45,606 nucleotides of DNA from a virus: UHGV virus genome UHGV-1352141; one strand, written 5' to 3'. A program made the translations under genes and the position numbers. Shown one piece after another: positions 24,211 through 45,606 of the stretch. The notes beneath the pieces are model-generated. The model searched no databases, was not told the origin of the DNA, and saw only the letters and a list, made by a program, of their open reading frames with translations. How positions within the stretch are numbered: position 1 is the stretch's first letter; each line of letters starts with the position of its first letter.

Positions 24211-24468
24211 ATGAAAACTTACTGGTACGTGTCATTAAACAATAAATATCCGAAGCCAATGAAAGGACAGCATAGACGTGTAGTCATGTCTGTTCAAATG
24301 AAGGCGAAGTATTCGATTGTAGAAATGATCAGAGAGGCAACGCCAGTAGAGATTGATCATTGCAAATTGATCTATCTTGGAAAAGGCTTCTTTTTTGATA
24401 CTCAAATTCAACAAGGATTGGCCAAGCATTTAAGTAGAATGAAAATCTGGAAACAAAACTCAACCTAA
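24211..24468 (+). CDS. Hypothetical protein
   Basis: AAAGGGATAGAG ribosome-binding site. Immediately upstream of terS. Confidence 0.5.
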   Translation: MKTYWYVSLNNKYPKPMKGQHRRVVMSVQMKAKYSIVEMIREATPVEIDHCKLIYLGKGFFFDTQIQQGLAKHLSRMKIWKQNST

Positions 24469-24493
24469 AGGAATGTGAGGTGGTGATTTATGA

Positions 24494-26639: not shown

Positions 26640-26655
26640 GGAGGGATAAAGTTTT

Positions 26656-29741: not shown

Positions 29742-29899
29742 TTAACTGCCCTGAATATGGCGTTAAACTGTTCGAAAATATCAAACATACTGATTGGGTC
29801 TATCAATCAAAAATCAAGTGGACTGGTTAAACTGGGCTGCTTTTTTTGCGTGCGCTAGGACTGATTGGGATAGGAGAGATTGAATTGAAAAATTTACTA

Positions 29900-30541
29900 A
29901 TGAAATTAGACCTGCAACTTTTTGCTGAAGAACAACCCTCAGATCAGAATTCCGAACAAATCAGGAATCCATATGAAGCTGGAAATCCTGAGTTTGATGC
30001 TGCAGTTTCTAAAGCAGTCAATACGGCTTTGGAAAATAATGACAAAAAATGGCAATCGAAACTTGATGAGAAATTGGAAAAGGTTCGGCAAGATGCGAAA
30101 ACAGAAGCTGAAAAAATGGCGCAAATGAATGCTGAACAAAAAGCGGATTATGATCGCCAACAGCGTGAAGCGGCATTAGATCAGCGAGAATTGGAACTAA
30201 ATATGCGTGAATTACGAGCGCAGTCAATTACGCAGTTAACAGAGGATAATTTACCTGTTGAATTAGTTGATCTTTTAGATTTGTCAGATGCAGATAAATG
30301 TCAAACTGCATATAACAAATTGAAAACAACGTGGGAAAAAGCTGTGGGAACTTGGGAAAAATCCTTACAAAAGAAAGTGAAAGAAGAACTAAAAAATAGT
30401 GTTGATAATCCTTTGGGGGATGCAACAAATCCAGAAGTTAACCCTTGGAAAAAGGAAACACTCAACCTTACAAAACAAGGTCAGATTTTGAAAGAAGATC
30501 CAGAGCGGGCAAAAGTGCTAATGGCTCAAGCCAATAAATAA
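29900..30541 (+). CDS. Scaffolding protein carrying a Prp cleavage motif
   Basis: Starts MKLDLQLFA-EEQ (L27-like LxLQ(F/L)FA). Coiled-coil-rich acidic and basic body. Its position before the major capsid gene fits a scaffold. Confidence 0.6.
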   Translation: MKLDLQLFAEEQPSDQNSEQIRNPYEAGNPEFDAAVSKAVNTALENNDKKWQSKLDEKLEKVRQDAKTEAEKMAQMNAEQKADYDRQQREAALDQRELELNMRELRAQSITQLTEDNLPVELVDLLDLSDADKCQTAYNKLKTTWEKAVGTWEKSLQKKVKEELKNSVDNPLGDATNPEVNPWKKETLNLTKQGQILKEDPERAKVLMAQANK

Positions 30542-30558
30542 GAAAGAAGGATAAAATC

Positions 30559-31593
30559 GTGGATAAATTAAAAATGAATTTACAGTTTTTCGCTAAAAAA
30601 ACAAAAATTGAAGATGTTATTGTTCCAGAAGTTTTTAATAAGTATGTAATCGAGCGTACAGCTGAATTATCAGCTTTATACCAATCGGGTATTGTAAGCC
30701 ATAATCCGGAGCTAGATGCTCTAGCTAGTGCCGGTGGTAAACTAATCAACATGCCTTTTTGGGCTGATTTAACTGGTGAAGACGAAGTCTTATCTGATAC
30801 GAATCCATTAGAAACGGATAAAATCACCGCGAATCAAGATCAGGCGGTTCTATTGATGCGTGGTAAAGCTTGGAAAGCGAACGATTTAGCAAAAGCACTT
30901 TCTGGTGATGATCCTATGCGAGCAATTGGTGATTTAGTTGCCGCTTATTGGGCGCGTCGTCAACAAGTAACTTTGCTTTCTATATTGAAAGGTGTGTTCG
31001 GAGGAACATCAACTAAAATGGCTGGAAATAGTCTAGATATTTCCGCTGAAACTGGAAATGATGCAGCATTTACAGGGGAAACATTTATCAATGCTTCTTA
31101 CAAACTGGGAGATGCAGAAGAAAAATTAACAGCATTAGCTGTTCATTCTTCAGTATACGCTAATTTACGAAAACAAAACTTAATTGAATTCTTGTTAGCT
31201 TCTGACAATACTAAAATTCCAACTTATATGGGGAAACGTGTCATTGTTGATGATGGTATGCCGTTAGATGGAGATGTGTTCACTTCTTATATTTTCGGAG
31301 AAGGAGCAATCGGTTTAGGAAACGGCGCGGCTCCTGTGCCAACGGAAACTGATCGTGATGCTTTAGCAGGAGATGATATTTTGATTAATCGCCAACACTT
31401 CTTGTTACATCCAAGAGGGGTGAAATTTACTAATAAATCTGTCGCAGGTTCTTCTCCTACGAATGCCGAATTGGCAACGGCAAGTAATTGGGAACGTGTA
31501 TATGAGCCAAAAAATATTCGTATTGTTCAATTCAAACATAAGCTTTATGTTCCTAATGTCACGGCTTCTGGTAGAACTGGAACAGGTAAGTAA
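30559..31593 (+). CDS. Major capsid protein (HK97 fold) with an N-terminal Prp motif
   Basis: MDKLKMNLQFFA-KKT N-terminus. Its size and its position after the scaffold gene fit a major capsid protein. GTG start after GAAGGA. Confidence 0.75.
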   Translation: MDKLKMNLQFFAKKTKIEDVIVPEVFNKYVIERTAELSALYQSGIVSHNPELDALASAGGKLINMPFWADLTGEDEVLSDTNPLETDKITANQDQAVLLMRGKAWKANDLAKALSGDDPMRAIGDLVAAYWARRQQVTLLSILKGVFGGTSTKMAGNSLDISAETGNDAAFTGETFINASYKLGDAEEKLTALAVHSSVYANLRKQNLIEFLLASDNTKIPTYMGKRVIVDDGMPLDGDVFTSYIFGEGAIGLGNGAAPVPTETDRDALAGDDILINRQHFLLHPRGVKFTNKSVAGSSPTNAELATASNWERVYEPKNIRIVQFKHKLYVPNVTASGRTGTGK

Positions 31594-31608
31594 AGAAGGT
31601 AAAGGAAA

Positions 31609-31956
31609 ATGAATGATGAGTTACTGGAAAAACACACGGATGTGTTGATGGAACGTCTCGACGATGTTGAGGAAAAGGAAAGACCTAAAATTAAAGGCAT
31701 GTTAGAGGACGCGATTACTCTCATTCTTGATTATACCGCTCGAACAACCGAACAGATGAACGATAGCCTTTATTACTATGCGCGACAATTAGTTGTGATT
31801 GCTTGGAATCAGGAAGGAAATGAGGGAGATGCTGCTCGTTCTGAAGGCGGCGTCTCCCATACCTTTATTACAGATATTCCGCCTAAATTAAAATCGTGCT
31901 TAAATAATCACAGGCTGGGAAAGGTCGTGAGTTTTCATGCGCCTAAGGAAACGTGA
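31609..31956 (+). CDS. Head-tail connector protein (gp6/gp15-like)
   Basis: Typical size and position. Confidence 0.55.
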   Translation: MNDELLEKHTDVLMERLDDVEEKERPKIKGMLEDAITLILDYTARTTEQMNDSLYYYARQLVVIAWNQEGNEGDAARSEGGVSHTFITDIPPKLKSCLNNHRLGKVVSFHAPKET

Positions 31957-32290
31957 CCTTTCAACCGTTTATTTAAAAGAGCGGTTAACTGGGCAAGATG
32001 ATGAAGGAAACTTTCAAGAAGGTTTTTCAGATGAATCAACAGAGATTCAAATGAATATTCAATCCGCAGGAGGACAAGTAATGGCTTCTGTCTATGGTCA
32101 AAGTCTTCCATACATCAAATCTTGCAAGTATCAAGGTGACAAAATCAAAGAAGGAAAGAATGAGAAAGATGGTATTTGTCTTTATGTGAGCAAAGATAAA
32201 GAACCAGACTATGAAATTGTTGCCATTCAAACATTTTCTGCTCATTGTAATGTGACCTTGAAGAAACTAGGTGATGAAGATGGGCGTTGA
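31937..32290 (+). CDS. Head closure / head-tail adaptor protein
   Basis: Position in the conserved neck module. Confidence 0.45.
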   Translation: MRLRKRDLSTVYLKERLTGQDDEGNFQEGFSDESTEIQMNIQSAGGQVMASVYGQSLPYIKSCKYQGDKIKEGKNEKDGICLYVSKDKEPDYEIVAIQTFSAHCNVTLKKLGDEDGR

Positions 32291-32819
32291 GTTCAGAGGT
32301 GCTGACCGACTGATGTCAAAAATACGAGCGATTCCTAAAGTGATGGAAGACGCTGTTTTTGAAGCGACATTCGATATTGTAGATGAAACTGTGGCAAGAG
32401 CAACAAGTCACCTGCAATCGTCAATTAAGTATGGATCAGGTGAATTAAGTGGTTCTCCAAAGCAGGAAGTCGTGATCGATGGTAAAGGTAAAATAATAGG
32501 GCGTGTGTGGTCAGACAAGATGGAAGCATTGTTTCGAGAGTTTGGTACAGGTCCAGTCGGAGCAGAGTCACCAAAAGATCTGCCGCCTGGAGTTAATCCT
32601 GTTTATTCTACTGAACGGTGGTTTATTCCTGTACACAAAACATCTGTTGACCTTGAGATGGTATACGGTATTTCAAGAGTGACTATCAAGGGACAAGATT
32701 TCTTTATGACTCGTGGGCAGCCGGCAAGACCTTGGCTATATCCGTCAATGAAAGAAGTGGTTGAAATGGCCGAAGACATTTATAAAGATCGTGTGAAGGA
32801 AGGACTGAGGAAACTATGA
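32271..32819 (+). CDS. HK97 gp10-like neck/tail component
   Basis: Position and size fit the HK97 gp10 family. Confidence 0.5.
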   Translation: MMKMGVEFRGADRLMSKIRAIPKVMEDAVFEATFDIVDETVARATSHLQSSIKYGSGELSGSPKQEVVIDGKGKIIGRVWSDKMEALFREFGTGPVGAESPKDLPPGVNPVYSTERWFIPVHKTSVDLEMVYGISRVTIKGQDFFMTRGQPARPWLYPSMKEVVEMAEDIYKDRVKEGLRKL

Positions 32820-33181
32820 CAGAGCGTTATAACATAAAGTCTGATATTGTTGCTCAGTTGAAAAAAGTCGCTGAGCTGAAGCTCGTATCTGCGGAGTATC
32901 CTAACACATGGTCGAATATGCCCGCTGCAATTTATTCGACAAAGGCAAAGCCGCACAAGAAAGATATATCCGACAAAGAAGCACTAACTGAATGGACAGT
33001 AAAAATCGATTTATACGGAAACAAATCTCTATCTACAATACAGAGTGAAATAATTAAAGTATTGAAAGAGATTGGATTTAAGAATACAGCCAGTGATGAT
33101 GGCAATCAAGATGCATTGAAGCGTTCGATTCTAACATTCCGAGGAGTGGTAGATAATCGAACGCTTTTTGTATACCAATAA
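32816..33181 (+). CDS. Tail completion / tail terminator protein
   Basis: Position immediately before the major tail protein. Confidence 0.45.
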   Translation: MTERYNIKSDIVAQLKKVAELKLVSAEYPNTWSNMPAAIYSTKAKPHKKDISDKEALTEWTVKIDLYGNKSLSTIQSEIIKVLKEIGFKNTASDDGNQDALKRSILTFRGVVDNRTLFVYQ

Positions 33182-33196
33182 CAAGGAGGAAATACC

Positions 33197-33634
33197 ATGA
33201 AGAAAACAAAAATTTTACCGATGAACTTACAATTATTTGCCGGTTTACTAACTAAGGGCACGGCGTTATCAATGAAATCAGGCTCCGAGTCTGGCTTTAC
33301 TGAAATTGAAGGATTACAAGCTGTTCCTGAAATCGGTGGAGATCCAGAACAAGTTGATGTTACGACGCTAAAAGACGCAAATAAAAAATATATTTCGGGT
33401 ATTCAAGATATGGATTCATTAGAGTTCACTTTCTTATATGACAAAGCTGTATTTACAAAGTTAAAGGCAGTGCAAACGTCAGGAAAAGAAGCAAAATTTG
33501 AATTGTCTTATCCTGACGGTGCGAAATGCACATTTACTGGCGGCGTGACTGTGAAAATGGGTTCTGGTGAAGTAAACGGAGCCTATCAATTTACGCTGTC
33601 TGTAACTGTTTCAGATGGACCGGATTGGGCATAA
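33197..33634 (+). CDS. Major tail protein, N-terminus also carries a Prp-type motif
   Basis: MKKTKILPMNLQLFA-GLL. Gly/Thr-rich beta-type protein before the chaperone and tape-measure genes. Confidence 0.6.
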   Translation: MKKTKILPMNLQLFAGLLTKGTALSMKSGSESGFTEIEGLQAVPEIGGDPEQVDVTTLKDANKKYISGIQDMDSLEFTFLYDKAVFTKLKAVQTSGKEAKFELSYPDGAKCTFTGGVTVKMGSGEVNGAYQFTLSVTVSDGPDWA

Positions 33635-33705
33635 ACGTTTAACGAAAACTATATGGGCTAGAGATAACCCTCTGGCCCTATTTAAATCTTAGGAGGAAAA
33701 ACAAT

Positions 33706-34077
33706 ATGAAACCAATGAAAGTAGAATTTGGAACTAAAACTCTATCCCTTGTATTAGATGGAAGTGCAACGGTAGACATTGAGAAGAAATTAGGTAAATC
33801 GTTATTTGGAATTATGATGACTGGCAACGGTGGAATGAAAATGCCGCGATTAGGTGAAATGCTAACTATCTTGCATTCTGCGAACCAAACAGCAAACATC
33901 AAGTCTGCCGATATGACGAAACTTTATGATGAATATATTTCTAAAGGCGGATCGATGATGAAGCTTTTCGAAGTCATTCAAGAATTGATGGAGAAGGCAG
34001 GTTTTTTCGAGTCGGAAACGACGGACGGAGAAGACCTAGTTGGGGAAGAGAAAAACGAGGAAGAGAGTCTAGTGTAG
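33706..34077 (+). CDS. Tail assembly chaperone (gpG-like)
   Basis: Acidic small protein between the major tail protein and the tape measure. Confidence 0.55.
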   Translation: MKPMKVEFGTKTLSLVLDGSATVDIEKKLGKSLFGIMMTGNGGMKMPRLGEMLTILHSANQTANIKSADMTKLYDEYISKGGSMMKLFEVIQELMEKAGFFESETTDGEDLVGEEKNEEESLV

Positions 34078-34097
34078 GCTTCTCTTCCTTTTCTGAT

Positions 34098-34457
34098 TTG
34101 CTGCAGGAGATGTATCCAAAAGCAGTAGAAGCAGGAATACCCGCAGAAAAATACTGGTCAATGACCTATGAAGAAATAGTCATACAAGCTGAAGCAAATG
34201 TTGCGATTAGAAAACAACAGCTAGAAGAAAAAGCCATGATGGATTACAAAGCTGCACAATTAAATGCTTATGGTTTTAATGATCCGAAGAAAATGCCTAA
34301 ACCAGATCAACACTATCCATTCTTGAAAACGGAAGATAAGCAGGAACAATCAAATCGGCCGCAAGATTGGGAAATTATGAAGGCTCGGATGATTGAACGA
34401 ACGGAATTGATTAAAGCTACACGAGAGCGGAAAAATAAACAGGAAAAGGAGGGATAG
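34098..34457 (+). CDS. Tail assembly chaperone, gpT-like part, possibly made as a -1 frameshift fusion with the upstream ORF
   Basis: In the -1 frame relative to the G ORF. That frame is open from 34041. G-AAA-AAC lies in the overlap. Confidence 0.45.
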   Translation: MLQEMYPKAVEAGIPAEKYWSMTYEEIVIQAEANVAIRKQQLEEKAMMDYKAAQLNAYGFNDPKKMPKPDQHYPFLKTEDKQEQSNRPQDWEIMKARMIERTELIKATRERKNKQEKEG

Positions 34458-34460
34458 ATC

Positions 34461-37400
34461 ATGGAGCTGGATAGACTTGAAGTCGTTTTTGATGGTGACT
34501 TGAACCCCATTGAGGAAAAGGTCGCACGATTTGAACAAAAGATGGATTCTATGATGAGCCGAGTCAAGAGTTCATCTGGTCAAGGGATGGACGCTGTAGA
34601 AAAAAACTTATCTGATTCAAAAGGGTTCGATAAATTTACCAAACAATTCGAGAAAATGAATTCAAATTTTGATTCTATGCTGAAGAGAATGAATCAATCG
34701 GCGGCAAAAAATGGCGAAGAAGTTGGGAAGTCACTTTCTGCTGGAGTATCCAAAGGCGCTGTTAAAATGACAAAAGATGTTCAAACCGCAGTTGATAAAG
34801 TGAACACGCAAATGCAGCAAGCCAAAGCAGCACAACAACGAATTGCCAACTTGCAGGCTAATAAAAATGGTGCGCGGTTGTCTGGGGATACTAAAAGTGA
34901 ATCGAGAATAGGCGAACAAATTTCAAAAGCTCAAATTCAGATGAACAAGTCGCAACAACAAGCACAAGCGATTGTGCGCGGATTAAAATCCGAATATGAT
35001 GCTATCCCTAATTCTCTGTCTAACATTTCAGCTAAGATGGAAGGCAATGAGCGGCAGATTGAAGCTATGAGAGCTAAAGTTAAGGCTCTGAAAAATGAAA
35101 TGAAGATGCAGCAAACAGAAACAGGAAGTTTCGCATCTGGAAAGTGGAAATCTACAGGGATACAAGATACACCACAATCAACCAAAACCGCTGAAGCTAT
35201 TTCTAAACAATCAGCAAAAATGGAAAAATTGATTGCAGACAATGATGCTTTGCAACGTTCATATGCTCAGTTGGAAGATCGTTCTGGTGTTCTAAAGACA
35301 GCGTTGTCTAGTGTAAATACGGAACTTGGCGAGCAACCTGTAAAAGCTCGTATGGCAGCAAATGGAATGAGGAATCTGTCGGGTTCCACGAAACAATCAG
35401 AAGGACTCTTTTCACGTTTCAAAAATATGATGAGTAATTCTATTGGTAGATTTGGAAGTTTATTTGACAGACAATCGAAACAAGTCACTAGCGGAACATC
35501 TAGAATGGCTCAAGGCATGGGTGGTTTTGGACGCTCCATGAAGATGCTATGGTCGCAGTTATTCTTGTTCACGTTCTTATACCAAGGAATCATGACTCTA
35601 GCTGGCGGGCTTTTTAAAGCGTTACAGACTAACGCACAGTTTTCAGCTAGTTTAAATCAAATTAAGGTCAATTTACTAACTGCATTTTATCCAATTTACC
35701 AAGCAGCTTTGCCAGCGATAAATGCTTTGATGTCGGCCTTAGCTAAAGTTACTGGCTATATTGCTGGATTTATATCCACACTTTTCGGAATGAACATCGG
35801 TGATGCATTCAACGGTGCTCAGGGACTAATGAACAATGTCCAAGCTTTAGATGATACTGGAAGTGCTGCATCTGATGCATCAGATGGATACGATGAGATG
35901 GCTCAATCCATTAAGGATTCAAATAAGCAACTTAAAGATCAGCATGATAGAACAGAAGCAGCTCGAAAAAAAGCAAAAGAATATAAACGTCTTTTAGCTG
36001 GGTTTGATGAATTAAACATTTTGGATTTCAGTGATGACTCTGACGACGAATCAAATGAGTTCATTCCTCAGGAAATTCCAACAAGACCGAAGAATCCGAA
36101 TGGATCTGGTTCTGATCCATGGGCTGACTTTGGATCAGCAGCAGTTCCAGAAACTCCGAAATGGTTAACGGATTTTGCCAAGAAATTTAAAGACATCATG
36201 TCAAAACTCTTTGATCCAATAAAGAAAGCTTGGGACGCTCAAGGAAAACGTGTTATGGATGCGTTCAAGTATTCATTATCTGAAATTGGAAAATTGATTA
36301 AGGCAATTGGTAAATCATTCTTGGAGGTATGGACTAATGGAACCGGACAAAAGTTTGTAGAAAATCTTTTAGTATTATTGGGCGATGTTCTTTATATCAT
36401 TGGTGATATTGCAAGGGCTTTTAGAATTGCTTGGGAAGAAAACGGCCGAGGCACTAAATTGATTCAGCAAATATTTAATGCTTTAAATCAGTGGTTAGAA
36501 GTCTTGCATGATATCGCGGAGTCATTCCGAGAAGTTTGGAATAATGGCACTGGGGTAGAGCTTGCAAGACAATTGATAGAATTCTATACTAAGCTATTTC
36601 ATTTAATAGAAACTATAGGTAAAGTATTTCAAAATGCTTGGAACGACAACGGTCGAGGGACGGCGATCATTCAAGCTATCTTTAACGCGTTATCAGAAGT
36701 TCTTAAGCTAATCAATTCAATCATGACAGCATTTGACAAGGCTTTTGCTTCGGGAATTGGCGAAAGTATTCTAGCTAATATCATGGAGATCATTACGAAT
36801 ATTTTCAATACTGTTGGAAATCTGGCAAAAAGCTTTCGAGAGGCATGGGATGAAAATAACCGAGGTCAAACAATCTTCGAAGGGATTATGAAGATAATTG
36901 ACACAGTCCTTGGGACAATCAAACGAATGACAGGAGCGACTGCAGAGTGGGCTAAGACTCTTGACTTCCGTCCACTCCTTAATTCTATTAATGGGTTACT
37001 TAAATCAATACAACCATTGACAAAAAACATTGGAGATGGGTTGGAATGGTTTTATAATAACGTTCTACTTCCTTTAGCCAAATACACAATTCAAGATTTA
37101 ATTCCAGCATTTCTTAAAGCATTAAGTGGTGCACTAGATGCACTTAACGGGATAATCAATGGATGTAAACCTGCTTTTGATTTCTTTTGGAATTCCATGC
37201 TCAAACCAATTGCTGAATGGACTGGAGGAGTAATCGTTGATGTATTGAAAAAACTAGGTGACGCTCTTTCGGGTATTGGGGATTGGATATCTGAACATCA
37301 AGAAGGATTTTCTACATTTGTAACTGTTTTCGGAACTTTTGCAGGGGTTCTTTTAGCTATTAGTAAATTAGCTGGTTTGGCAGAAGTTCTTGTAGGAGTT

Positions 37401-39119
37401 TTTAACTTTATTACTTCAATAAAAAGTCTAGCCGGAGCATTGTCTTTAGTTAAATTTGGACTTGAAGCGTTTATGACTGCTCTTGGAGGACCATGGGCCA
37501 TTGCGATAGGCGCAGCCATTGCCGTTGGTGTTTTGTTATGGCAAAATTGGGATACCATCAAAGAGAAAGCTAGCCAGTTGAAAGACTGGATCGGTGAAAA
37601 ATGGGAAGGTATAAAGACGGCAACATCTAATGCTTGGAATAATGTCAAAAATTGGACTTCGGAAAAATGGAATGCAGCGAAAGATGCTGTGACTAGTAAA
37701 GCAGGTGAAATTTATACCGCCGCTAAAGATAAATTTACGAATACTGCAAATACAGTTCGCGATAAAGCAGGTCAAGCAAAAGATTGGGTTTCTAGCAAAT
37801 GGTCTGATTTAAAGAATTCCACTTCAACTAAATTTGAAGAAATACGTTCAACTGCTGGTTCGAAAATGAACAGCGCAGCTGAAGCGGTTAGGTCTGGTGC
37901 AGAGACAGCTAAAAGTAAAGCTGTTTCTGCATTTTCAAGTTTGAAGGATGGAGTCGGAGGACATTTAAATTCAATAAAAACTACAGCTTCAGAAGTCTTT
38001 AAGAAAGTAGGGGGATGGGCGTCCGATTTACCTGGTGATATTGCAAAAGGCCTGTCTAGCGGTCTTAATACGATTAAACAAGCCATGAACAATATTGCCA
38101 ATGGATTAGCCTCTGGAATAGGAAAAGGTGTTAATGGCATTATCTCTGGAGTTAACTGGGTTATGAGTAGTTTAGGTGCAGGTTGGCGATTATCTTCTTG
38201 GCACGTACCATATTTCAGTTATGCAACTGGGACGAGTTTTCATCCAGGCGGATTAGCTATGGTAAATGACGGAGATGGCAGCAATTGGCGTGAGATGTAT
38301 AAGTTGCCAAGTGGTCAGATTGGCATGTTCCCTAAACAAAAGGATTACATGGTTAACCTTCCCAAAGGTACCCAAGTCCTAAATGGTAGGGACACCAATA
38401 ACTTTATGAATAATATTCCTCACTATAAAGGTGGATTAATCGACAGTGTTAAGAATTTCTTTGGTTCGATAAGTCCGAGTGCTTTATTAGATCGAGCATT
38501 CGAAAAATTCGTTGATGTAGCAGGTATACCTGAACCAGGAGCTTCGATGGCTCTAGGCGCGGCTAAGAGAATTAAATCAAGTGCTTTTCGTGTCGTGAGT
38601 GATCGTATTTCTGAACTATTCAGACTCGATCGAGAAAACGAAAGTAAGAAAAAGGGATTTGCTAACGGAGGTAGAGTAGATCAGTTTGGCTGGTACAAAA
38701 TGTCTGAAGGCAATAACACTGAATGGGTTGTTCCAGTAACTAAGCCAGAACTAGCCTTTCAAAGAATCAACGAAGCGCTTGATTTCATGGGGTATGATGG
38801 TATCCCTGATTTAACAATGCCAGAAGTATTTAGAGATTCATCTGATAGTTATACTGGTTCAAGTTCATCTGGTAAAAAGAATAAAGGTTTTTCTATTACT
38901 GGTAATGGGATGGAAAACTTATCAGATAATCTACTTTCAAGTCTTGGTAATACAATCGCGAATGCCATTATTAACGCGCTCTCTAATTTGGATCTGAAGG
39001 GGAACGACGGGCCCTTGGAAGTTGTTCTAGAGGTAGATTCAACTAGATTAGGACAAGTAACTGTACGAGGCATTAATCAGTATCATGAACAGATAGGAAA
39101 TGTAGAACTAAACTTATAA
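34461..39119 (+). CDS. Tape measure protein (1552 aa)
   Basis: Coiled-coil N-terminus, hydrophobic segments, about 36-aa tandem repeats (...FREVWNNGTG...), Trp-periodic repeats (KDWIGEKWEG...). AAGGAGGG ribosome-binding site. Confidence 0.9.
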   Translation: MELDRLEVVFDGDLNPIEEKVARFEQKMDSMMSRVKSSSGQGMDAVEKNLSDSKGFDKFTKQFEKMNSNFDSMLKRMNQSAAKNGEEVGKSLSAGVSKGAVKMTKDVQTAVDKVNTQMQQAKAAQQRIANLQANKNGARLSGDTKSESRIGEQISKAQIQMNKSQQQAQAIVRGLKSEYDAIPNSLSNISAKMEGNERQIEAMRAKVKALKNEMKMQQTETGSFASGKWKSTGIQDTPQSTKTAEAISKQSAKMEKLIADNDALQRSYAQLEDRSGVLKTALSSVNTELGEQPVKARMAANGMRNLSGSTKQSEGLFSRFKNMMSNSIGRFGSLFDRQSKQVTSGTSRMAQGMGGFGRSMKMLWSQLFLFTFLYQGIMTLAGGLFKALQTNAQFSASLNQIKVNLLTAFYPIYQAALPAINALMSALAKVTGYIAGFISTLFGMNIGDAFNGAQGLMNNVQALDDTGSAASDASDGYDEMAQSIKDSNKQLKDQHDRTEAARKKAKEYKRLLAGFDELNILDFSDDSDDESNEFIPQEIPTRPKNPNGSGSDPWADFGSAAVPETPKWLTDFAKKFKDIMSKLFDPIKKAWDAQGKRVMDAFKYSLSEIGKLIKAIGKSFLEVWTNGTGQKFVENLLVLLGDVLYIIGDIARAFRIAWEENGRGTKLIQQIFNALNQWLEVLHDIAESFREVWNNGTGVELARQLIEFYTKLFHLIETIGKVFQNAWNDNGRGTAIIQAIFNALSEVLKLINSIMTAFDKAFASGIGESILANIMEIITNIFNTVGNLAKSFREAWDENNRGQTIFEGIMKIIDTVLGTIKRMTGATAEWAKTLDFRPLLNSINGLLKSIQPLTKNIGDGLEWFYNNVLLPLAKYTIQDLIPAFLKALSGALDALNGIINGCKPAFDFFWNSMLKPIAEWTGGVIVDVLKKLGDALSGIGDWISEHQEGFSTFVTVFGTFAGVLLAISKLAGLAEVLVGVFNFITSIKSLAGALSLVKFGLEAFMTALGGPWAIAIGAAIAVGVLLWQNWDTIKEKASQLKDWIGEKWEGIKTATSNAWNNVKNWTSEKWNAAKDAVTSKAGEIYTAAKDKFTNTANTVRDKAGQAKDWVSSKWSDLKNSTSTKFEEIRSTAGSKMNSAAEAVRSGAETAKSKAVSAFSSLKDGVGGHLNSIKTTASEVFKKVGGWASDLPGDIAKGLSSGLNTIKQAMNNIANGLASGIGKGVNGIISGVNWVMSSLGAGWRLSSWHVPYFSYATGTSFHPGGLAMVNDGDGSNWREMYKLPSGQIGMFPKQKDYMVNLPKGTQVLNGRDTNNFMNNIPHYKGGLIDSVKNFFGSISPSALLDRAFEKFVDVAGIPEPGASMALGAAKRIKSSAFRVVSDRISELFRLDRENESKKKGFANGGRVDQFGWYKMSEGNNTEWVVPVTKPELAFQRINEALDFMGYDGIPDLTMPEVFRDSSDSYTGSSSSGKKNKGFSITGNGMENLSDNLLSSLGNTIANAIINALSNLDLKGNDGPLEVVLEVDSTRLGQVTVRGINQYHEQIGNVELNL

Positions 39120-39131
39120 GGAGATGAGCTA

Positions 39132-39491
39132 ATGGATTTCTTGATATCAGGGTCAAATGTAGTAACACCAAAAGAATTATCTGTCAGCATACAAACCTTA
39201 GACAGTGGTTCTAGCGGAAGAAATGCTAATGGAGATATGGTTCGCGATATTCTCGGAAGAAAAACTAAATTAGATGTAAAATGGGGACCTTTGGAAATTT
39301 CAGAGGTCTCTTTAATTTTGCGTTTAATTGATTCTGCCTTTTTTACAGTAAGGTATTTTGACCCACAGGAGGCAGGATTGATTACAAAAACATTTTACTG
39401 TGGTGATAGAGTAGTACCTGTTTACTCTTGGAATGAAAAATTCTCGAAGATGATGTGGCAAGGCTTGTCCGTATCGTTAATTGAAAAGTAG
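39132..39491 (+). CDS. Small tail protein, possibly a reduced distal tail protein
   Basis: Position immediately after the tape measure. Only 119 aa, short for a Dit protein. Confidence 0.4.
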   Translation: MDFLISGSNVVTPKELSVSIQTLDSGSSGRNANGDMVRDILGRKTKLDVKWGPLEISEVSLILRLIDSAFFTVRYFDPQEAGLITKTFYCGDRVVPVYSWNEKFSKMMWQGLSVSLIEK

Positions 39492-39502
39492 GTGAATACT
39501 GA

Positions 39503-42124
39503 ATGCTGATAGTTTCAAATGAATTCTTTGAAGCCTGTAAAGATAAAGAAAGGGAAGCTTTTGCACGCATCATTGTTAATGATAAAGTCATATATCTTAA
39601 AGATAAAATAAAGAAAATTGATTATTCAATGGGGGCCTTGGGAGGAGAAAGTTTCCAGATTGGGTCAACGCAATCAGCCACAGTTAAAATTGTTTTTTCT
39701 GAAATTATTGAAGGGTTAAAAGAACTAGACGAGATCAAGGTAGAAGTAGGATTTAAAATAAGAGGAACCGGCTTGCCATCAAATATCAATCATGTTTCAA
39801 AAGTTGATCGAGCAAAAGTTGGAAGAGCAAGATTGGTGAGCTATGTTCCCGATAGATATGAATTTGTTCCTCTAGGAACGTTTTACATTAGTGGTCGAGT
39901 TGATCCCGACAGGAATGAAAAGACTACAACTGTTGAAGCTAGAGACGGATTTATTTTTTTGGAAGACAAATATGAGTCCGAGTTGAAATATCCAACAAAA
40001 TTAGCAGACATTGCTTTAGAAATAGCAAACAAAAGTGGAAGTATTATCGATCCTGTTTCGTTTAACCATTTGAGTAATTACACGATAAATAAGTTTGAGG
40101 GATACACATATCGGCAAGCAATAGGTTTAGTCGGACAATTTGAAGGTGGGTTTGTTTGTTTTGATAGAGAAGGTAGACTGTCAATTCGAAAACTAGCAGA
40201 CCCGAACTTTAAGATTGAACCAAATGAATACTTTTTAAAAGGCCTTGTAAAAAGTGAATTACTTTATCAACCTAGAGGGATTACATGTAAAGTTGTTAAC
40301 CAAACTAATGAATCTAGTAATGAAACAGTTATTCTTCAATCAGGGTCAACAAATGGTGCGCAGATTTCTCTGGAAAATAATGCGATGACTCAGATTTTAT
40401 TAGATGATGTTTTCCAGAAAATAAGATACATCAATTTTTACCCAATCAGTTTGAAGTGGCGAGGGAATCCAGCTTTAGAGGTTGGAGACTGGGTAACTAT
40501 GACAGATAGAGAGGGAAATAAATTTAAATCTCCTGTTCTAAATTATACGATGTCTTTCGACGGTGGTTTCAGTTCAACTATTAGTGCTGACACTAAAGCT
40601 TATTCAGCTAACGTCTCATCATTCAAAGGACCGTTGCAACAAAAGCTTGATGACATCGATTATAGAATCGATGCAGCTGGCAAGAACAATGTTTATGAAG
40701 GAACAGAGGAACCGACAAATCCAAAAGAAGGCGACATCTGGTTTAAAAAGAATGGACCAGATGATGAGATATGGGTTTATAAGCAAACGGCACCTGGAGT
40801 ATTCGAGTGGGTAATGACGACATCCACCGCTTTAGAGGAAAGTATCAAAGAGCAAATTGAAAACTCGACTCCTAAAGATGAAATAGTTAAAACCATTAAT
40901 CTGAGTGATGAGATGGATGGTAAAGAGTGGCTGAAAATTAAAGGCGCAAAATTATGGCTAACTAACGAGACGAAGATTGACAAAGCTATAATCACATCGG
41001 CAATGATTGGATCAGTTGATGCTGGAACAATTAGTGTTGGTACTCTAGATGCTTCTAAAATAAGAGTCGTCAATCTTGACGCTTCATCTATATCCACTGG
41101 AACGTTGAATGCTATAACGATTAAAGGGGCGACTATAACAGGATCTAAAATCACGTCAACTGGTACGGATTATAATATGACCTTAGATAACGGAGCAATT
41201 CGGTGGAACAGAAAGTCTGATGGAAAAAAAGTATTCGAAATATATAGTGCGATCAGAAATCAAAATGAAGGTGTCATGTATTTTGCAGTTGAAGACGGCG
41301 GAACCTTCAATTTGAAAAGCAATAAACTGAATAGGAATTTTATCACTGCATATGGTTCAACCAGCAATATGCAATTAAACCTTGATTTAGATAGATTAAG
41401 TCTTTATTCATCAACTGGGAATACTTTAAGTTTTAGTGTTGAACGAACTGGTTTTTCTTATAGTACGAACGACAATGGGACATATAGAAATTTGTATTTA
41501 CGTAACAATTCGTTCAGAGCAGATATTGGAGGTAACAAATATCTGAACTTAACGAATACTGGTTTTTCAATAAATACTGAAGGCATAATGAGCTTTATGA
41601 CAAACAACTCAATCCAATTGAGAGGAACATCGGCAAGAATCATGAGCGATGCTTCAGTTGATAAATCATTTTATGTGTATGGGACAAAAAGCTCCATTGT
41701 AAGGACTGAAAATTTTGGTGAGCGTTTGCTATATGCTTATGAAACACCAGAATATTTATTTGCGACATATGGTAAGGCAATTACTGATGAAAATGGGTTT
41801 ATAGAGATTGAAATTGAACCAATATTTTTAGAAACAATCAATACTGATTCAAAAAACTATCATGTTTTTGTTACACCATATGAGAATGCAAATGTTCATG
41901 CGTGCCATTTAGAGCGTGATCGTTTCATGGTTAAGTCTGACAAACCTAACATAGAATTTAGTTGGCAAATAGTAGCTTATAGAAAAGGATACGAAGAATT
42001 TTATTTGGAAACTCTATCCAGCAATAACGATAAAGCGCCAAATTTGCTTCAATATCCAATAAGTATTTCTGACATGACAGAGAAAAACTCTAATCAAATA
42101 TTAAATTACGAGAAGGTGAATTAA
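39503..42124 (+). CDS. Tail-associated protein / prophage tail endopeptidase family (Tal-like)
   Basis: N-terminal region resembles the Prophage_tail family. 873 aa with a C-terminal beta-rich region. Confidence 0.7.
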   Translation: MLIVSNEFFEACKDKEREAFARIIVNDKVIYLKDKIKKIDYSMGALGGESFQIGSTQSATVKIVFSEIIEGLKELDEIKVEVGFKIRGTGLPSNINHVSKVDRAKVGRARLVSYVPDRYEFVPLGTFYISGRVDPDRNEKTTTVEARDGFIFLEDKYESELKYPTKLADIALEIANKSGSIIDPVSFNHLSNYTINKFEGYTYRQAIGLVGQFEGGFVCFDREGRLSIRKLADPNFKIEPNEYFLKGLVKSELLYQPRGITCKVVNQTNESSNETVILQSGSTNGAQISLENNAMTQILLDDVFQKIRYINFYPISLKWRGNPALEVGDWVTMTDREGNKFKSPVLNYTMSFDGGFSSTISADTKAYSANVSSFKGPLQQKLDDIDYRIDAAGKNNVYEGTEEPTNPKEGDIWFKKNGPDDEIWVYKQTAPGVFEWVMTTSTALEESIKEQIENSTPKDEIVKTINLSDEMDGKEWLKIKGAKLWLTNETKIDKAIITSAMIGSVDAGTISVGTLDASKIRVVNLDASSISTGTLNAITIKGATITGSKITSTGTDYNMTLDNGAIRWNRKSDGKKVFEIYSAIRNQNEGVMYFAVEDGGTFNLKSNKLNRNFITAYGSTSNMQLNLDLDRLSLYSSTGNTLSFSVERTGFSYSTNDNGTYRNLYLRNNSFRADIGGNKYLNLTNTGFSINTEGIMSFMTNNSIQLRGTSARIMSDASVDKSFYVYGTKSSIVRTENFGERLLYAYETPEYLFATYGKAITDENGFIEIEIEPIFLETINTDSKNYHVFVTPYENANVHACHLERDRFMVKSDKPNIEFSWQIVAYRKGYEEFYLETLSSNNDKAPNLLQYPISISDMTEKNSNQILNYEKVN

Positions 42125-42277
42125 ATGAATAAGGATGGTTTTGAAGTAAATGCGGAAAGCGTTATTGATCAATTATTAAAAAGACTGTCTCAAGTAGAGT
42201 TGGAAAATGCTTCACTAAAAGTAGCTCTTGATCAGGTTTCGGTTAATAAACAAAACGTTACAAAAGAAGGTGAGTAA
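42125..42277 (+). CDS. Small ORF (50 aa) between Tal and the tail fibre
   Basis: GAAGGTGA ribosome-binding site. Coiled-coil-like. Confidence 0.4.
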   Translation: MNKDGFEVNAESVIDQLLKRLSQVELENASLKVALDQVSVNKQNVTKEGE

Positions 42278-43312
42278 ATGGCTTATGAAAAGCAAAATTG
42301 GATTTCGTATGATGACAATAAAACAGAAGAGCAAAATATTCAGGACGGTGCGGTTGTTACTGCCGAAAGAATGAATCATTTGGAGACAGGGTTAGACGAA
42401 CACGATAAAAATACTACTAATCCGCACAAGGTAAATAAAGATCAGGTTGGCTTAGGTAATGTAACAAATGTGGAGCAAGCTAGTAAAACGGAGTTTAATT
42501 CTCACACATCGAATAAAACTAATCCACATGGCGTTACTAAAACACAAGTGGGGCTAGGAAACGTATCAAATGTGGAGCAAGCCAGTAAAACGGAGTTCAA
42601 TAGTCATGTTGCTGATAAAACGAATCCGCATTCCGTAACGAAGGCTCAAGTTAACCTCGGTAACGTCGACAACTACGCTACTGCCAATCAGACTGATGCG
42701 GAACAGGGGCTTGCAGGAAATAAATTTATTACGCCAATGGGTGTAAAGCAGCATGTAGATAAGCGTATAGCGACGCAGGAAGAAGTAAACGCAGGGGAAG
42801 CAAGGGATAAAATTGTTAGTCCTAAGACGCTTGATAAAAAGTTAGATGATTTAAATGTATCAGGTGGTTTTGGTGCATTTAACATGAGTGTTTTCAATGG
42901 GGAGCAAGGACAAATAACTGGTAGTGGAATTCATGGGAAAGAGGTCAAATCAGGAACTCAAGTGCTACACATGCGGCCAGATGACCCAGTGGCAGAGAGA
43001 GCGTCCAATGGTCGGATTAAAATCCAAAAAGCTGGTACGTATTTATTTATCATTCACACGTGGTATCAAATAGGCACACAAACAAATGGTTACCTGTATT
43101 TCAATTTGTTAAAGAATGGCTCTCGTGCCGGCAACAATGATCGAGTGACTGGTCAAGGGGTAGATGCACTCAAGAATAGATGGGACGGCACAGGGCAGTG
43201 TGTAAACACAGCGAATGCAGGAGATGAGTTTTCTGTAGGTATTGAAACCAATATTACCGGCAGTTTCACGAATGTTGGCACAAAAACTATTACAGTTATC
43301 AAATTAGCATAG
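42278..43312 (+). CDS. Tail fibre / receptor-binding protein with three 34-aa tandem repeats
   Basis: The unit TNPHxVxKxQVGLGNVxNVEQASKTEFNSH occurs three times. AAGAAGGTGAG ribosome-binding site. Confidence 0.7.
   Translation: MAYEKQNWISYDDNKTEEQNIQDGAVVTAERMNHLETGLDEHDKNTTNPHKVNKDQVGLGNVTNVEQASKTEFNSHTSNKTNPHGVTKTQVGLGNVSNVEQASKTEFNSHVADKTNPHSVTKAQVNLGNVDNYATANQTDAEQGLAGNKFITPMGVKQHVDKRIATQEEVNAGEARDKIVSPKTLDKKLDDLNVSGGFGAFNMSVFNGEQGQITGSGIHGKEVKSGTQVLHMRPDDPVAERASNGRIKIQKAGTYLFIIHTWYQIGTQTNGYLYFNLLKNGSRAGNNDRVTGQGVDALKNRWDGTGQCVNTANAGDEFSVGIETNITGSFTNVGTKTITVIKLA
42416..42700 (+). repeat. 102-bp tandem repeats (about 2.8 copies) inside the tail fibre gene
   Basis: Units start at 42416, 42518 and 42620. 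Confidence 0.7.
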
Positions 43313-43382
43313 ATAAATAAGCAACGATTTAGCACACTTTCGAGTGTGCTTTTTCAATTATTGAAAGGAAGGCGGAAGGCAT

Positions 43383-43721
43383 GTGTTAGAAAAATTTCTG
43401 GAAATTAACAGTTTCTTGATGGCAATTGGATTAGGGGGATTCTTAAAGATTTTCCACAATATTTATAAAGCGGTCAAGGGAAATAAGGATCAAACGGAAA
43501 ATAGATTCAAACGTTTGGAATATGCGAATGTAGCCATTCTGCATGACAAAATTTATAAGCAATGCTCCGAATTTTTGGAGCAGGGTTGGATTTCTATAGA
43601 TGATCTCGAAAACTTAGAGTATTTATGGCGTGGTTATCGGGAACTTGGCGGTAACGGAACTGGCGAAACACTGTATAAAAAAGTGTTGGATTTGCCGAAT
43701 AAACTAAAGGAGGAAAACTAA
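43383..43721 (+). CDS. Membrane-anchored protein upstream of the holin (possibly lysis-associated)
   Basis: N-terminal transmembrane segment FLMAIGLGGFLKIF. Confidence 0.45.
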   Translation: MLEKFLEINSFLMAIGLGGFLKIFHNIYKAVKGNKDQTENRFKRLEYANVAILHDKIYKQCSEFLEQGWISIDDLENLEYLWRGYRELGGNGTGETLYKKVLDLPNKLKEEN

Positions 43722-43723
43722 TT

Positions 43724-43993
43724 ATGGATTTATCATTTATCACAGAAAATTTCGTACCAGTGATTGTGGTGGCGTGTTTAATTGTGGGGCATGTAATTAA
43801 GGTGACGCCACTATTCAATAAAGTAGCAAATGCTTATATCCCATTGATTGTAGCAGCGTTAGGAGCGATTTTGGGCGGTGTTATGAACGGTATAGATGTG
43901 GAGTCAATTGTTTATGGCGCAGTGAGTGGTTTAGCTTCTACAGGCTTGCATCAAATGTTTTCAAAATTATTGAATTTAGGAGGGAATGAGTAA
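43724..43993 (+). CDS. Holin
   Basis: 89 aa with two transmembrane segments and a charged C-terminus. Immediately upstream of the endolysin. Confidence 0.65.
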   Translation: MDLSFITENFVPVIVVACLIVGHVIKVTPLFNKVANAYIPLIVAALGAILGGVMNGIDVESIVYGAVSGLASTGLHQMFSKLLNLGGNE

Positions 43994-44110
43994 CATGGAC
44001 ATGAAAAAAGCGAAGGAACTTTACGAAAAATCAGATGATAAAAATGTTGGTCTGCAACCTCAACCAAAAGAAATCGAAAACGTCAAAGAAGGAAGAGAGG
44101 AGAAAAAATA

Positions 44111-45124
44111 ATGGCTATTAATATCGAAAAAGGATTAGCTGTCGTTCAAAAATTTGTAAATAATTGCTACTACAGCATGTATGGTTCTCGTTATTACACA
44201 GATGGTACATGCGACTGTTCAGGCTCTGTTTATCGTATTTTACGTGAATCTGGTGGTTTTAACTATGGATATATTCCTAGCACTGAAACGCTACATGACT
44301 ATCTTCTAAAGCTAGGGTATGAAAAGATCGCAGAAAATACAGACTTTCCAATGCAACGCGGCGATGTAATTATTTGGGGGAAAAAGGGTTACTCTGCAGG
44401 GGCAGGCGGTCATACAGGCGTAGCACTAGATAATCAAAACTGGATTGAATGCACTGGTTGGAAAATGACTACGATCATTGCTAATCACGATCAACGATGG
44501 GTGATGGCCGGATGTCCTTATTTTTATGCGTACCGTTTAAAAACTGGAGCATCTAGCTCAACATCGTCGAATACAGCGACAACAACACCTGCAACTGGAA
44601 ATAAAAGCGGTATCGCGATTGACAACGTGTCGAAAGATCAAGCGGTTAAAATGGTGCAACGCATTCAAACACGATATGCATGGACTTTATTGCGCGATCA
44701 AGTAAAACGAGTGTTGCAGCCGAACAAGGTTTATACTTTAGTAATCTCGTGCGATTCTAAGTGGAAGTACGAAAACGCTGTAAATCGTTTGAAGCAGGAA
44801 CTTAAGACATACTATCCTGGATATATGCAACAGAACATTGCGATTGTTGATGGAGATAAACCTATCATTAAAATTGAGGCTAGAAATCTCAACGACGCAC
44901 AAAGTAAAAAGATGGAAGATCATATGCGCAACTTCCTGAAAGATGTATTGTTGGATAAACAAACGTATGCTGAGGCTAATAGTTACGGTACTTGGGATGT
45001 GCGCGTAAGAGGTGAAGGCTTTAACGATCACGACGCACCAATCGTCTTGAAAGAAATTCAGGAGATGGGTAAAGCGAAAGACGTGAAGATTAATCCGGCA
45101 CATATAAAAGGATTTAGATATTAG
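44111..45124 (+). CDS. Endolysin with an N-terminal papain-like NlpC/P60 or CHAP-type peptidase domain
   Basis: DCSGSVYRIL (catalytic Cys) and GHTGVAL (His). Ser/Thr-rich linker. C-terminal putative cell-wall-binding region. Confidence 0.8.
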   Translation: MAINIEKGLAVVQKFVNNCYYSMYGSRYYTDGTCDCSGSVYRILRESGGFNYGYIPSTETLHDYLLKLGYEKIAENTDFPMQRGDVIIWGKKGYSAGAGGHTGVALDNQNWIECTGWKMTTIIANHDQRWVMAGCPYFYAYRLKTGASSSTSSNTATTTPATGNKSGIAIDNVSKDQAVKMVQRIQTRYAWTLLRDQVKRVLQPNKVYTLVISCDSKWKYENAVNRLKQELKTYYPGYMQQNIAIVDGDKPIIKIEARNLNDAQSKKMEDHMRNFLKDVLLDKQTYAEANSYGTWDVRVRGEGFNDHDAPIVLKEIQEMGKAKDVKINPAHIKGFRY

Positions 45125-45197
45125 AATACGCTTGAAAAAAATAATTTTTAGTAGTACTCTATACGTACCAAGAGCAAACCTTTTAGTTTTTCATTTA

Positions 45198-45236
45198 AGA
45201 TCAGCCGTTTCTTTATTGTGGCTGATCTTTTGTTTT
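45198..45236 (+). terminator. Intrinsic terminator after the endolysin
   Basis: AGATCAGCC / GGCTGATCT stem followed by TTTGTTTT. Confidence 0.7.
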
Positions 45237-45257
45237 GTACCCTTAGCTCAGCTGGTG
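45237..45257 (+). other. 21-nt fragment copying the 5' end of the tRNA (acceptor plus D-arm)
   Basis: GTACCCTTAGCTCAGCTGGTG. The acceptor GTACCCT is the perfect complement of the AGGGTAC at 45..51. Confidence 0.6.
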
Positions 45258-45313
45258 TCATCATTGCAGGGATAAAACTTCTATAGATACTGGTATCACG
45301 ATATTAAATAGTA

Positions 45314-45343
45314 TTGACTAATGATTAATCAAAATTGTATAAT
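45314..45343 (+). promoter_or_regulatory. Strong sigma-70-like promoter TTGACT-18-TATAAT
   Basis: TTGACT at 45314..45319 and TATAAT at 45338..45343, with TG immediately upstream of the -10 box. Confidence 0.6.
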
Positions 45344-45349
45344 TTTTTT

Positions 45350-45424
45350 GGTGGTATTCGCTTACCGCTAACACTAACACCTTTAGGCTGACCGATACTA
45401 GCTTTTCGGTCAGTCTTTTTATTT
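45350..45424 (+). ncRNA. Short terminated transcript of about 65 to 75 nt (sRNA or leader)
   Basis: Begins after the promoter. Ends at terminator CTGACCGA...TCGGTCAG (45388..45413) plus TCTTTTTATTTT. Followed by a 9-codon ORF MVAIKPVYE with a GAGG ribosome-binding site. Confidence 0.35.
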
Positions 45425-45473
45425 TGAGGCAAAATGGTTGCTATAAAACCAGTATATGAATAATATCAAAATA

Positions 45474-45538
45474 GGGATTCCTGATACAGCAAGGTTGAGA
45501 GAGAAACAGAATATGCTGTGGGGAAGATCAGGAATCCC
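45474..45538. repeat. 12-bp perfect inverted repeat GGGATTCCTGAT / ATCAGGAATCCC with a 41-nt spacer, immediately upstream of the tRNA
   Basis: Seen directly. Confidence 0.6.
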
Positions 45539-45585
45539 CAATTTATATTCTAACGCTTTGTATGTTTATCTACAAATGATCTTTC

Positions 45586-45606
45586 GTACCTTTAGCTCAG
45601 TTGGTA
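45586..45606 (+). tRNA. 5' part of a tRNA (acceptor GTACCTT, D-arm TAGCTCAGTTGGTA) cut by the window end. Continues in phase with position 1.
   Basis: Concatenating 45586..45606 with 1..52 gives a complete 73-nt tRNA with a canonical cloverleaf. Confidence 0.75.

Follow-up and report, generated by a model that had tools for sequence, protein, structure and literature searches.

Temperate phages of Latilactobacillus curvatus carry a prophage-encoded transfer RNA (tRNA), tRNA-Ile2(CAU), for which dependence on host TilS and a role in codon compensation have been proposed (PMC10688831). A related tRNA gene is present in the Enterococcus phages 4995_1 (OP745419.1), vB_ElaS_B1578 (PQ283533.1; B1578 below) and EH-TP1 (PQ571301.1), in each case downstream of the endolysin. 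Here we describe a gene of this kind in the virus genome UHGV-1352141. The whole 45,606-nucleotide stretch was analysed and is referred to as the window; the tRNA, which has a CAT anticodon, is divided between its two ends. We consider it very probable that the window spans exactly one unit of the genome of a temperate Enterococcus avium phage of siphovirus type, circularly permuted and opened between nucleotides 21 and 22 of a phage-borne tRNA, that the phage integrates at a 14-bp core and that its tRNA is a paralog, now diverged, of the host's tRNA-Ile2(CAU).

Record ends and integration site

The two parts of the tRNA gene occupy the extremities of the window.

45586..45606, plus strand: tRNA nucleotides 1-21, comprising the 5′ strand of the acceptor stem, the 5′ strand of the D-arm and the D-loop (ARAGORN on the rotated or circular sequence; Rfam on locus L004)
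1..52, plus strand: tRNA nucleotides 22-73, comprising the 3′ strand of the D-stem, the anticodon arm (CAT), the variable loop, the T-arm, the 3′ strand of the acceptor stem and the discriminator A; CCA is not encoded

Read directly from the sequence, the last 21 nucleotides (GTACCTTTAGCTCAGTTGGTA) and the first 52 (GAGCAG...GGGTACA) match those quoted in a preliminary description, which took the ends to be the halves of one CAT-anticodon tRNA and the record to be a circular or permuted genome opened inside that gene. ARAGORN finds no tRNA in the linear window. The search of a rotated sequence that the same description proposed, and a search in circular mode, recover a single 73-nucleotide tRNA(cat) at [45586,52], and on L004, a contig that contains the join, the Rfam tRNA family (RF00005) scores 70 bits against a gathering score of 29 over the full model (1-71). 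The two ends are indeed halves of one gene. Its cloverleaf has stems of 7, 4, 5 and 5 bp, a seven-nucleotide anticodon loop, G18 and G19 and a T-loop, and 21 out of 21 pairs in the window copy are standard.

The record ends are adjacent in independent molecules. Exact-protein look-ups with the endolysin, a 191-amino acid cargo protein and the integrase gave 28 loci from isolate genomes and gut metagenomes, which were compared with a join query made by fusing window positions 44007..45606 to 1..4000. Locus L004 is 100% identical over all 5600 nucleotides of this query, and L001-L019 match across the join. L013 and L008 also span it, reaching or passing the attachment (att) region. L004, L013 and L008 share the order lysin, tRNA, cargo, phage attachment site (attP), integrase, which is that of the excised or replicative form, and the unbroken join in these three loci bears out the proposed circular or permuted topology. 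The phage encodes a Terminase_6N/6C large subunit, an SPP1-type portal and a small terminase (Pfam), a set compatible with headful (pac-type) packaging and a permuted genome; in SPP1-like phages, headful packaging yields permuted genomes that assemble as circles.

Alternatively, the window could be a linear piece of chromosome that begins and ends in two different tRNA genes, each cut at one and the same position or, as a variant, one unit from a tandem double lysogen. A tandem lysogen would likewise hold the gene order of L004 and L013, and such an origin would not alter the nature of the element. Every contig, however, has a single tRNA per phage unit, and the two window ends correspond to the flanks of that tRNA, cargo on one side and lysin on the other. 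A segment between two host tRNA genes would have host flanks; the window has none, and it is exactly one unit without terminal overlap. We regard both forms of this explanation as very improbable.

The break falls in a part of the tRNA that the phage and host genes have in common. The two are identical at nucleotides 20-66, and the 47-nucleotide block so defined contains both the window break (21|22) and the end of contig L010 (tRNA nucleotide 49). A random opening point would fall in it with a probability of 47/45606, or ∼0.001. Because the break lies inside a block common to the host gene, its position is probably an assembly effect rather than arbitrary: a short-read assembly graph would fork at the shared block, and a circular contig would be opened there. 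In L007 the crossover also lies within the block. This locus combines the phage 5′ strand and short D-loop with the host 3′ strand, followed by the host array Ser-Met-Asp-Phe-Gly-Ile-Glu. Its tRNA (11476..11548 in ENA ERZ783290 NODE_45, coverage 4) has a U2-C71 mismatch, and phage lysis genes are linked straight to the host tRNA array. L007 is most likely a misassembly through the 47-nucleotide block, the alternative being a real recombinant. The case shows how phage-host tRNA identity over 47 nucleotides can fragment short-read assemblies or produce chimeras.

Integrated copies place the host junctions close to the integrase gene, at the following features.

2312..2325: att core, GACTATGCAAAATA, 14 bp common to both prophage junctions and overlapping the last codons of host rny
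2277..2315: 11-bp perfect inverted repeat, AGTCTATCTAG / CTAGATAGACT, read from the sequence, with its right arm overlapping the att core
2406..3548, minus strand: tyrosine integrase of 380 amino acids (Pfam Phage_integrase and Arm-DNA-bind_4, on an identical product)

On the cargo side, similarity to the window ends at 2325 and is followed by host genes (EntA_Immun-like, MprF and HSP20; L001, L003, L005, L006, L011, L012, L015, L017-L019). On the integrase side it begins at 2312, 80 nucleotides past the integrase stop codon, and abuts host rny, recA and cinA (L021-L023, L025-L028). Both junctions share 2312..2325, and these 14 bp are therefore the att core. The integrated copies, in E. avium 352 and many gut metagenome contigs, keep the endolysin, tRNA and cargo contiguous, so that the order in a lysogen would be rny / integrase, structural genes, endolysin, tRNA, five cargo genes / host. 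The same contiguity in integrated and excised forms makes the tRNA and the minus-strand cargo phage-borne, as had been suggested. L001, L011 and L022 belong to CP034169.1, the genome of E. avium strain 352 (PMC6480912), in whose prophage IS110-family transposases break the tape-measure gene and the early region.

The preliminary description had argued against classical integration into the tRNA, and had set as a test beforehand whether bacterial junctions lie at the tRNA or at the 2277..2315 dyad. They lie at the dyad: ∼17 integrated contigs join the host at 2312/2325, and a second copy of the tRNA 3′ end is absent from the window at up to three mismatches. It is thus extremely improbable that the tRNA is the attachment site and the window ends its attL and attR halves. 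Such an arrangement would have precedent, since integration into tRNA genes is common among temperate phages, and the host carries the same tRNA body. Solitary copies of the phage type of this tRNA (with a U2-A71 pair; see below) also occur in the E. faecium clade in surroundings that look chromosomal (L084, L120 and L130) and could in principle serve as bacterial attachment sites (attB) for other phages. Against this, some ten independent integrated copies have the lysin-tRNA-cargo segment unbroken and joined to the host at 2325, with the integrase side joined to rny at 2312. The sole partial copy of the tRNA in the window is a 5′ fragment 350 nucleotides upstream, on the same side. The tRNA is internal to the prophage, 2.3 kb from the integrase, compared with 80 nucleotides for the mapped core, and in EH-TP1, B1578 and 4995_1 accessory genes likewise separate the tRNA from the integrase.

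The tRNA was therefore rejected as attP on the junction mapping. We also considered and rejected the window tRNA as an attL-type hybrid, with host-like T6, phage-like G67 and captured host DNA at 45258..45585. The U6.G67 type occurs twice in phage LM 4-11-1 and in five IMG/VR contigs, the 176 nucleotides that precede the tRNA accompany it in other phages too, and the upstream DNA of the window has no similarity to the upstream flanks of the chromosomal solitary copies.

Isotype, codon use and lineage of the tRNA

Enterococcus tRNA arrays contain three classes of gene with a CAT anticodon: the initiator, the elongator Met and a third gene, GGACCTTTAGCTCAGTTGGTTAGAGCAGACGGCTCATAACC...AAGGTCCA. 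The third gene is X in the array order Ala-Met-X-Ser-Met-Asp-Phe, a position that we take to be that of tRNA-Ile(CAU) in the trnB cluster of Bacillus subtilis. The window tRNA is identical to this third class at 70 of 74 positions, and to the initiator and elongator Met classes at 46-47 of 76. Its best E. coli matches are genes annotated as tRNA-Ile that carry CAT, and its ortholog in 4995_1 is called tRNA-Ile by PGAP/tRNAscan-SE. We assign it by sequence comparison to the tRNA-Ile2 class (CAU; the lysidine-dependent reader of AUA) and not to Met. ARAGORN assigns “Met” by default to every CAT anticodon. Initiator tRNAs are marked by three consecutive G-C pairs adjoining the anticodon loop; the anticodon stem of the window tRNA lacks them at this place, and its G1 and C72 are paired. 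The label tRNA-Ile2(CAU) is thus preferable to tRNA-Met, and public records of orthologs disagree on this point, the same tRNA being tRNA-Ile in one of OP745419.1, PQ283533.1 and PQ571301.1, tRNA-Met in another and unannotated in the third.

The phage gene differs from the host gene by a U2-A71 pair (host G2-C71), a U6.G67 pair (host U6-A67) and a D-loop one base shorter, and is identical to it at A3-U70, C4-G69 and C5-G68. The identity pairs published for TilS of E. coli are 4:69 and 5:68, and those for B. cenocepacia 3:70 and 4:69, with inversion of 6:67 tolerated (PMC11947777); Enterococcus TilS may use others. After transcription, host TilS would convert C34 to lysidine, and the modified tRNA would be charged with isoleucine, adding capacity to decode AUA. 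The phage tRNA may in this way supplement AUA decoding and offset a difference between phage and host codon use.

Codon counts are compatible with such a role. ATA accounts for 14.9 per 1000 codons and 22% of Ile codons in 46 phage genes, compared with 3.2 per 1000 and 4.4% in 12 host genes flanking the prophage, and is absent from host rpsL, rpsG, fusA and tuf. ATG is not enriched in the phage genes. One of the ATA-rich genes encodes an 873-amino acid tail protein and has 24 ATA codons.

The phage-type gene belongs to a recognisable lineage. Among 120 sampled species genomes, 115 copies have G2-C71, 112 of them in tRNA arrays, and five have U2-A71, all five of these being solitary and from Enterococcus. 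In IMG/VR, U2-A71 occurs in 70 viral contigs, solitary in all 70, with C6-G67 in 65 and U6.G67 in five; it is also the type found in 4995_1, B1578 and EH-TP1. Across 12 distinct variants, 98.8% of cells pair, and both 2:71 and 6:67 change on both sides, a pattern which argues that the structure is under selection. The last 42 nucleotides of the window have no exact match in IMG/VR, and the 73-nucleotide form with this flank therefore lies outside that collection.

We rejected the idea that all five genomic U2-A71 copies lie in prophages, since a prophage context is clear only for L080, and that of L084, L120 and L130 appears chromosomal. The latter three (Enterococcus sp. ZJ1622, E. lactis CCM 8412 and E. 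durans NBRC 100479, respectively) have a solitary U2-A71 tRNA(CAT) in an apparently conserved chromosomal neighbourhood, preceded by a gene for a pyrimidine-dimer glycosylase and followed by genes for an isochorismatase, a HAD hydrolase and GT8. The U6-A67 subtype of L084 and L120 was found in none of the 70 viral contigs. These chromosomal copies may be a domesticated phage gene or attB for other phages. Another record, L154 (OR846730.1, “Listeria phage LM 4-11-1”, UNVERIFIED_ORG), holds two full U2-A71/U6.G67 copies 2 kb apart in the same orientation (1330..1403 and 3341..3414), each with one substitution, one in the T-stem and the other in the variable loop. The U2-A71 type was otherwise encountered in Enterococcus alone, and so the Listeria assignment of this wastewater contig may be doubtful.

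One speculative extension, to which we give a low probability, is that U2-A71 marks a phage-adapted tRNA-Ile2 lineage among Enterococcus temperate phages, settled also at a chromosomal locus in the E. faecium clade, in which the 2:71 change is functional and not a neutral marker of descent. If this were true, the changed pair might evade a host activity that depletes or cleaves tRNA-Ile2, or might alter processing, modification or charging. The acceptor-stem variant is in any case recognisable, so that phage and host tRNAs can be told apart in tRNA-sequencing data.

Several points weigh against our overall interpretation. The prophage ends in E. avium 352 (L001 and L022), each 100% identical to the window, are 1.25 Mb apart in the finished chromosome, at ∼0.18 and ∼1.44 Mb; this suggests that the prophage is rearranged and defective, that there are two of them or that the assembly is at fault. 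The assembly explanation of the break names a cause that we infer. The ∼4.7-fold excess of ATA in phage over sampled host genes is measured against a small host sample (4108 codons, plus the four highly expressed genes from another contig), and could be a by-product of the lower G+C content of the phage (37.6%, compared with 42%). A similar ATA excess is reported for a prophage that lacks the tRNA (PMC10688831), and for this reason the codon argument is permissive and not decisive. There is no convincing promoter directly upstream of the tRNA, and the sole strong promoter nearby, at 45314..45343, is cut off from it by a terminator-like hairpin. The 73-nucleotide form with the short D-loop is found in this phage lineage alone, the 120 genomic and 70 IMG/VR copies all having 74 nucleotides. 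Finally, a related module is decaying: the ortholog in L014 has a U7-U66 mismatch and that in L020 an 11-nucleotide duplication that destroys the cloverleaf, so selection on the tRNA gene is not universal.

The two decaying orthologs were recorded as follows. In L020 (10846..10930) the duplication, GGTTAGAGCAT, lies in the D-arm, and ARAGORN miscalls the gene as tRNA-Cys. In L014 (10846..10919) the mismatch is accompanied by a G27.U43 wobble, and the cargo module is ∼95% identical to that of the window.

The duplication in L020, the acceptor mismatch in L014, the want of a clear promoter and the perhaps compositional ATA excess (PMC10688831), together with the U.G wobble and D-loop deletion of the window copy itself, would also suit a functionless passenger, that is, a captured and slowly decaying host copy kept by linkage to the cargo module. 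The U2-A71 pair, however, is compensatory and fixed in the 70 viral contigs and several sequenced phages. Position 6:67 varies only among the standard pairs U-A, C-G and U.G, and the tRNA body is otherwise invariant, with G18, G19, the T-loop and the anticodon loop intact. The same post-lysin position is kept across phages with unrelated lysins. We therefore judge a passenger to be unlikely.

We give a still lower probability to the idea that the phage tRNA mainly replaces host tRNA-Ile2 depleted or cleaved during infection, by shut-off or a tRNA-targeting defence, with the acceptor change conferring resistance or distinguishability. Apart from D-loop length, the differences from the host gene are confined to the acceptor stem, where the entire phage lineage carries the same change. 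That phage tRNAs make up for host tRNAs that are degraded has been put forward in the literature (Yang et al. 2021, cited in PMC10688831), and would fit. On the other side, no nuclease or defence gene was identified nearby, PADLOC returning no match in the cargo. The anticodon loop, by which known anticodon nucleases recognise their targets, is the same in the phage and host tRNAs. Supplementation of AUA decoding by a tRNA-Ile2 paralog remains our preferred interpretation.

Neighbouring genes and the 21-nucleotide copy

The tRNA lies between the lysis genes and attP, with the following features around it.

44111..45124, plus strand: endolysin (Amidase_5), the last late gene before the tRNA region
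45199..45236, plus strand: terminator-like hairpin of the endolysin gene, GATCAGCC/GGCTGATC, with a T-run, read from the sequence
45237..45257, plus strand: vestigial 5′ fragment of a phage-type tRNA (C6 variant), GTACCCTTAGCTCAGCTGGTG, with three mismatches to the tRNA 5′ end
45410..45585, plus strand: leader upstream of the tRNA, co-inherited with tRNA and cargo (similarity begins at 45410 in L014, L020 and L160, and at 45388 in L197)
57..79, minus strand: terminator hairpin immediately 3′ of the tRNA, the T-run being on the minus strand (window 79..57 is equivalent to L004 10450..10428)
322..2273, minus strand: five cargo genes between the tRNA and attP, encoding a 191-amino acid SHOCT-domain protein followed by products of 94, 89, 70 and 184 amino acids

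Temperate phages of Gram-positive bacteria usually keep accessory genes between the lysis genes and attP, and it is in this interval that the tRNA and cargo are found. The cargo genes stay with the lysin and tRNA in every integrated copy, and SHOCT is their only Pfam match. Other loci reveal where the interval is exchanged. L014 and L020 have another lysin and another host locus (comG), and have in common with the window only 45410..2189, at ∼95% identity. In L002 and L016, which adjoin host tRNA-Leu, similarity ends at 2184. In L024 this integrase and attP are present, but from 2185 they are joined to other cargo and another lysin. From these boundaries it follows that the tRNA, its 176-nucleotide leader and the cargo are one exchangeable module, and the integrase and attP another. 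The mosaic boundary at 2184/2185 recurs inside the 5′ part of the open reading frame for the 184-amino acid product, phages with other integrases (L002, L016, L014 and L020) losing similarity at 2184-2189.

The preliminary description also noted a truncated copy of the tRNA 5′ end, with three mismatches, right after the endolysin terminator. We find it at 45237..45257, adjoining the terminator hairpin (arms 45199..45206 and 45220..45227) and its T-run (45228..45236), downstream of the endolysin stop at 45124; a simple terminator scan missed this hairpin because of its 13-nucleotide loop. The copy is the only other match to the tRNA 5′ end at up to three mismatches, and 100 shuffles gave none. 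Its 21-nucleotide length is the amount of tRNA present at the right end of the window; the real similarity covers nucleotides 1-20, nucleotide 21 being mismatched. It has C6, as do the orthologs in other phages and most phage-type copies. Together with the preceding T-run, it aligns to the start of the intact tRNA of L080, a prophage of Enterococcus sp. AZ128 in which the tRNA begins directly after the lysin terminator and a 75%-identical SHOCT gene lies downstream. L197, whose lysin is 93% identical, lacks window 45127..45387 and resumes similarity at 45388, so the vestige sits in a segment peculiar to this lineage. It is best read as the remnant of an earlier tRNA gene placed directly after the lysin terminator, a scar that module exchange would have left behind, and is not a functional partner of the present tRNA.

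Further elements of the region were noted on the way from lysin to cargo. A candidate small RNA unit occupies 45314..45420, with a promoter (TTGACT, 18 nucleotides, TATAAT; 11 of 12 consensus positions) at 45314..45343, followed by ∼75 nucleotides predicted to form a pair of hairpins, of which the second has a T-run (−28.4 kcal/mol, z = −6.4). It has no match in Rfam or phage records. L197 has a differing 5′ part and the same terminator hairpin. Within the leader there is a 12-bp perfect inverted repeat, GGGATTCCTGAT / ATCAGGAATCCC (45474..45485 with 45527..45538), with a 41-nucleotide spacer and lying 48 nucleotides upstream of the tRNA. It is retained in L014, L020 and L197 with spacer changes, and could serve in processing or regulation of the tRNA precursor. 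An uncalled 48-amino acid open reading frame, MTNRKITKIRKKIHEDITIFRGKTPLWKRLTLWLLIVILLIDILIKLL (90..236, minus strand), is oriented convergently to the tRNA and extends as far as the hairpin 57..79. With its basic N terminus and hydrophobic C terminus, it could encode a small membrane peptide or toxin; its only Pfam match is sub-threshold (DUF6606, 20.7 bits against a cut-off of 27).

Megablast of 43000..45606 and 20600..45580 against 50,697 phage records gave no match, and neither did a distant blastn search of 45125..45585. For 1..4000, the tRNA was the only match to phage records, and a permissive Rfam search of the contiguous region returned nothing besides the tRNA.

Comparison with described phages

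The host counterpart is the array-borne tRNA-Ile2 of Bacilli, with which the 70 identical positions include the anticodon arm, the T-arm and pairs 1:72, 3:70, 4:69, 5:68 and 7:66. The host gene lies in arrays (median 17 tRNAs per 8-kb piece) and shows no variation among the 21 Enterococcus genomes sampled and Bacillus spizizenii. In contrast, the phage gene is solitary, and what sets it apart is the 2:71 pair, position 67 and the length of the D-loop.

Other temperate phages use tRNA genes as integration targets (e.g. the tRNA-Arg, Leu, Ser, Gln and Glu groups; PMC10688831); they likewise have a tyrosine integrase with an att site next to it, and their genomes contain tRNA sequence. In the present phage, however, the tRNA is complete, 2.3 kb from the integrase and at neither junction, and the target is the 3′ end of a protein gene, rny. 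A prophage-boundary tool could take the split tRNA for att halves, and a linear tRNA scan overlooks the gene; the record is best handled as circular and rotated prior to annotation. The practical lessons of this locus are thus ones of annotation and assembly.

The closest relatives of the tRNA itself are those of 4995_1, B1578 and EH-TP1, which are 96-97% identical, lie on the same strand and stand between an upstream endolysin and downstream minus-strand accessory genes and integrase; B1578 and EH-TP1 also have SHOCT or PH-domain genes in the accessory region. Nucleotide similarity of these three phages to the window is confined to the tRNA, and their genes have 74 nucleotides and C6-G67, in contrast to 73 nucleotides and U6.G67 in the window.

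The L. curvatus phages present the same picture in another host genus: a full-length CAT tRNA first labelled Met and reclassified as Ile2, and an ATA share of Ile codons of 15.7% in phage and 4.3% in host, compared with 22% and 4.4% here (PMC10688831). The one such phage compared, TMW 1.1365 P3 (L032), has the host-type G2-C71 pair, in contrast to U2-A71 in the window. A prophage-borne tRNA-Ile2(CAU) with ATA use above that of the host is already published for Latilactobacillus phages, and the feature is in this respect ordinary; with the present locus, an E. avium phage joins those temperate phages of Lactobacillales that have a tRNA for reading AUA.

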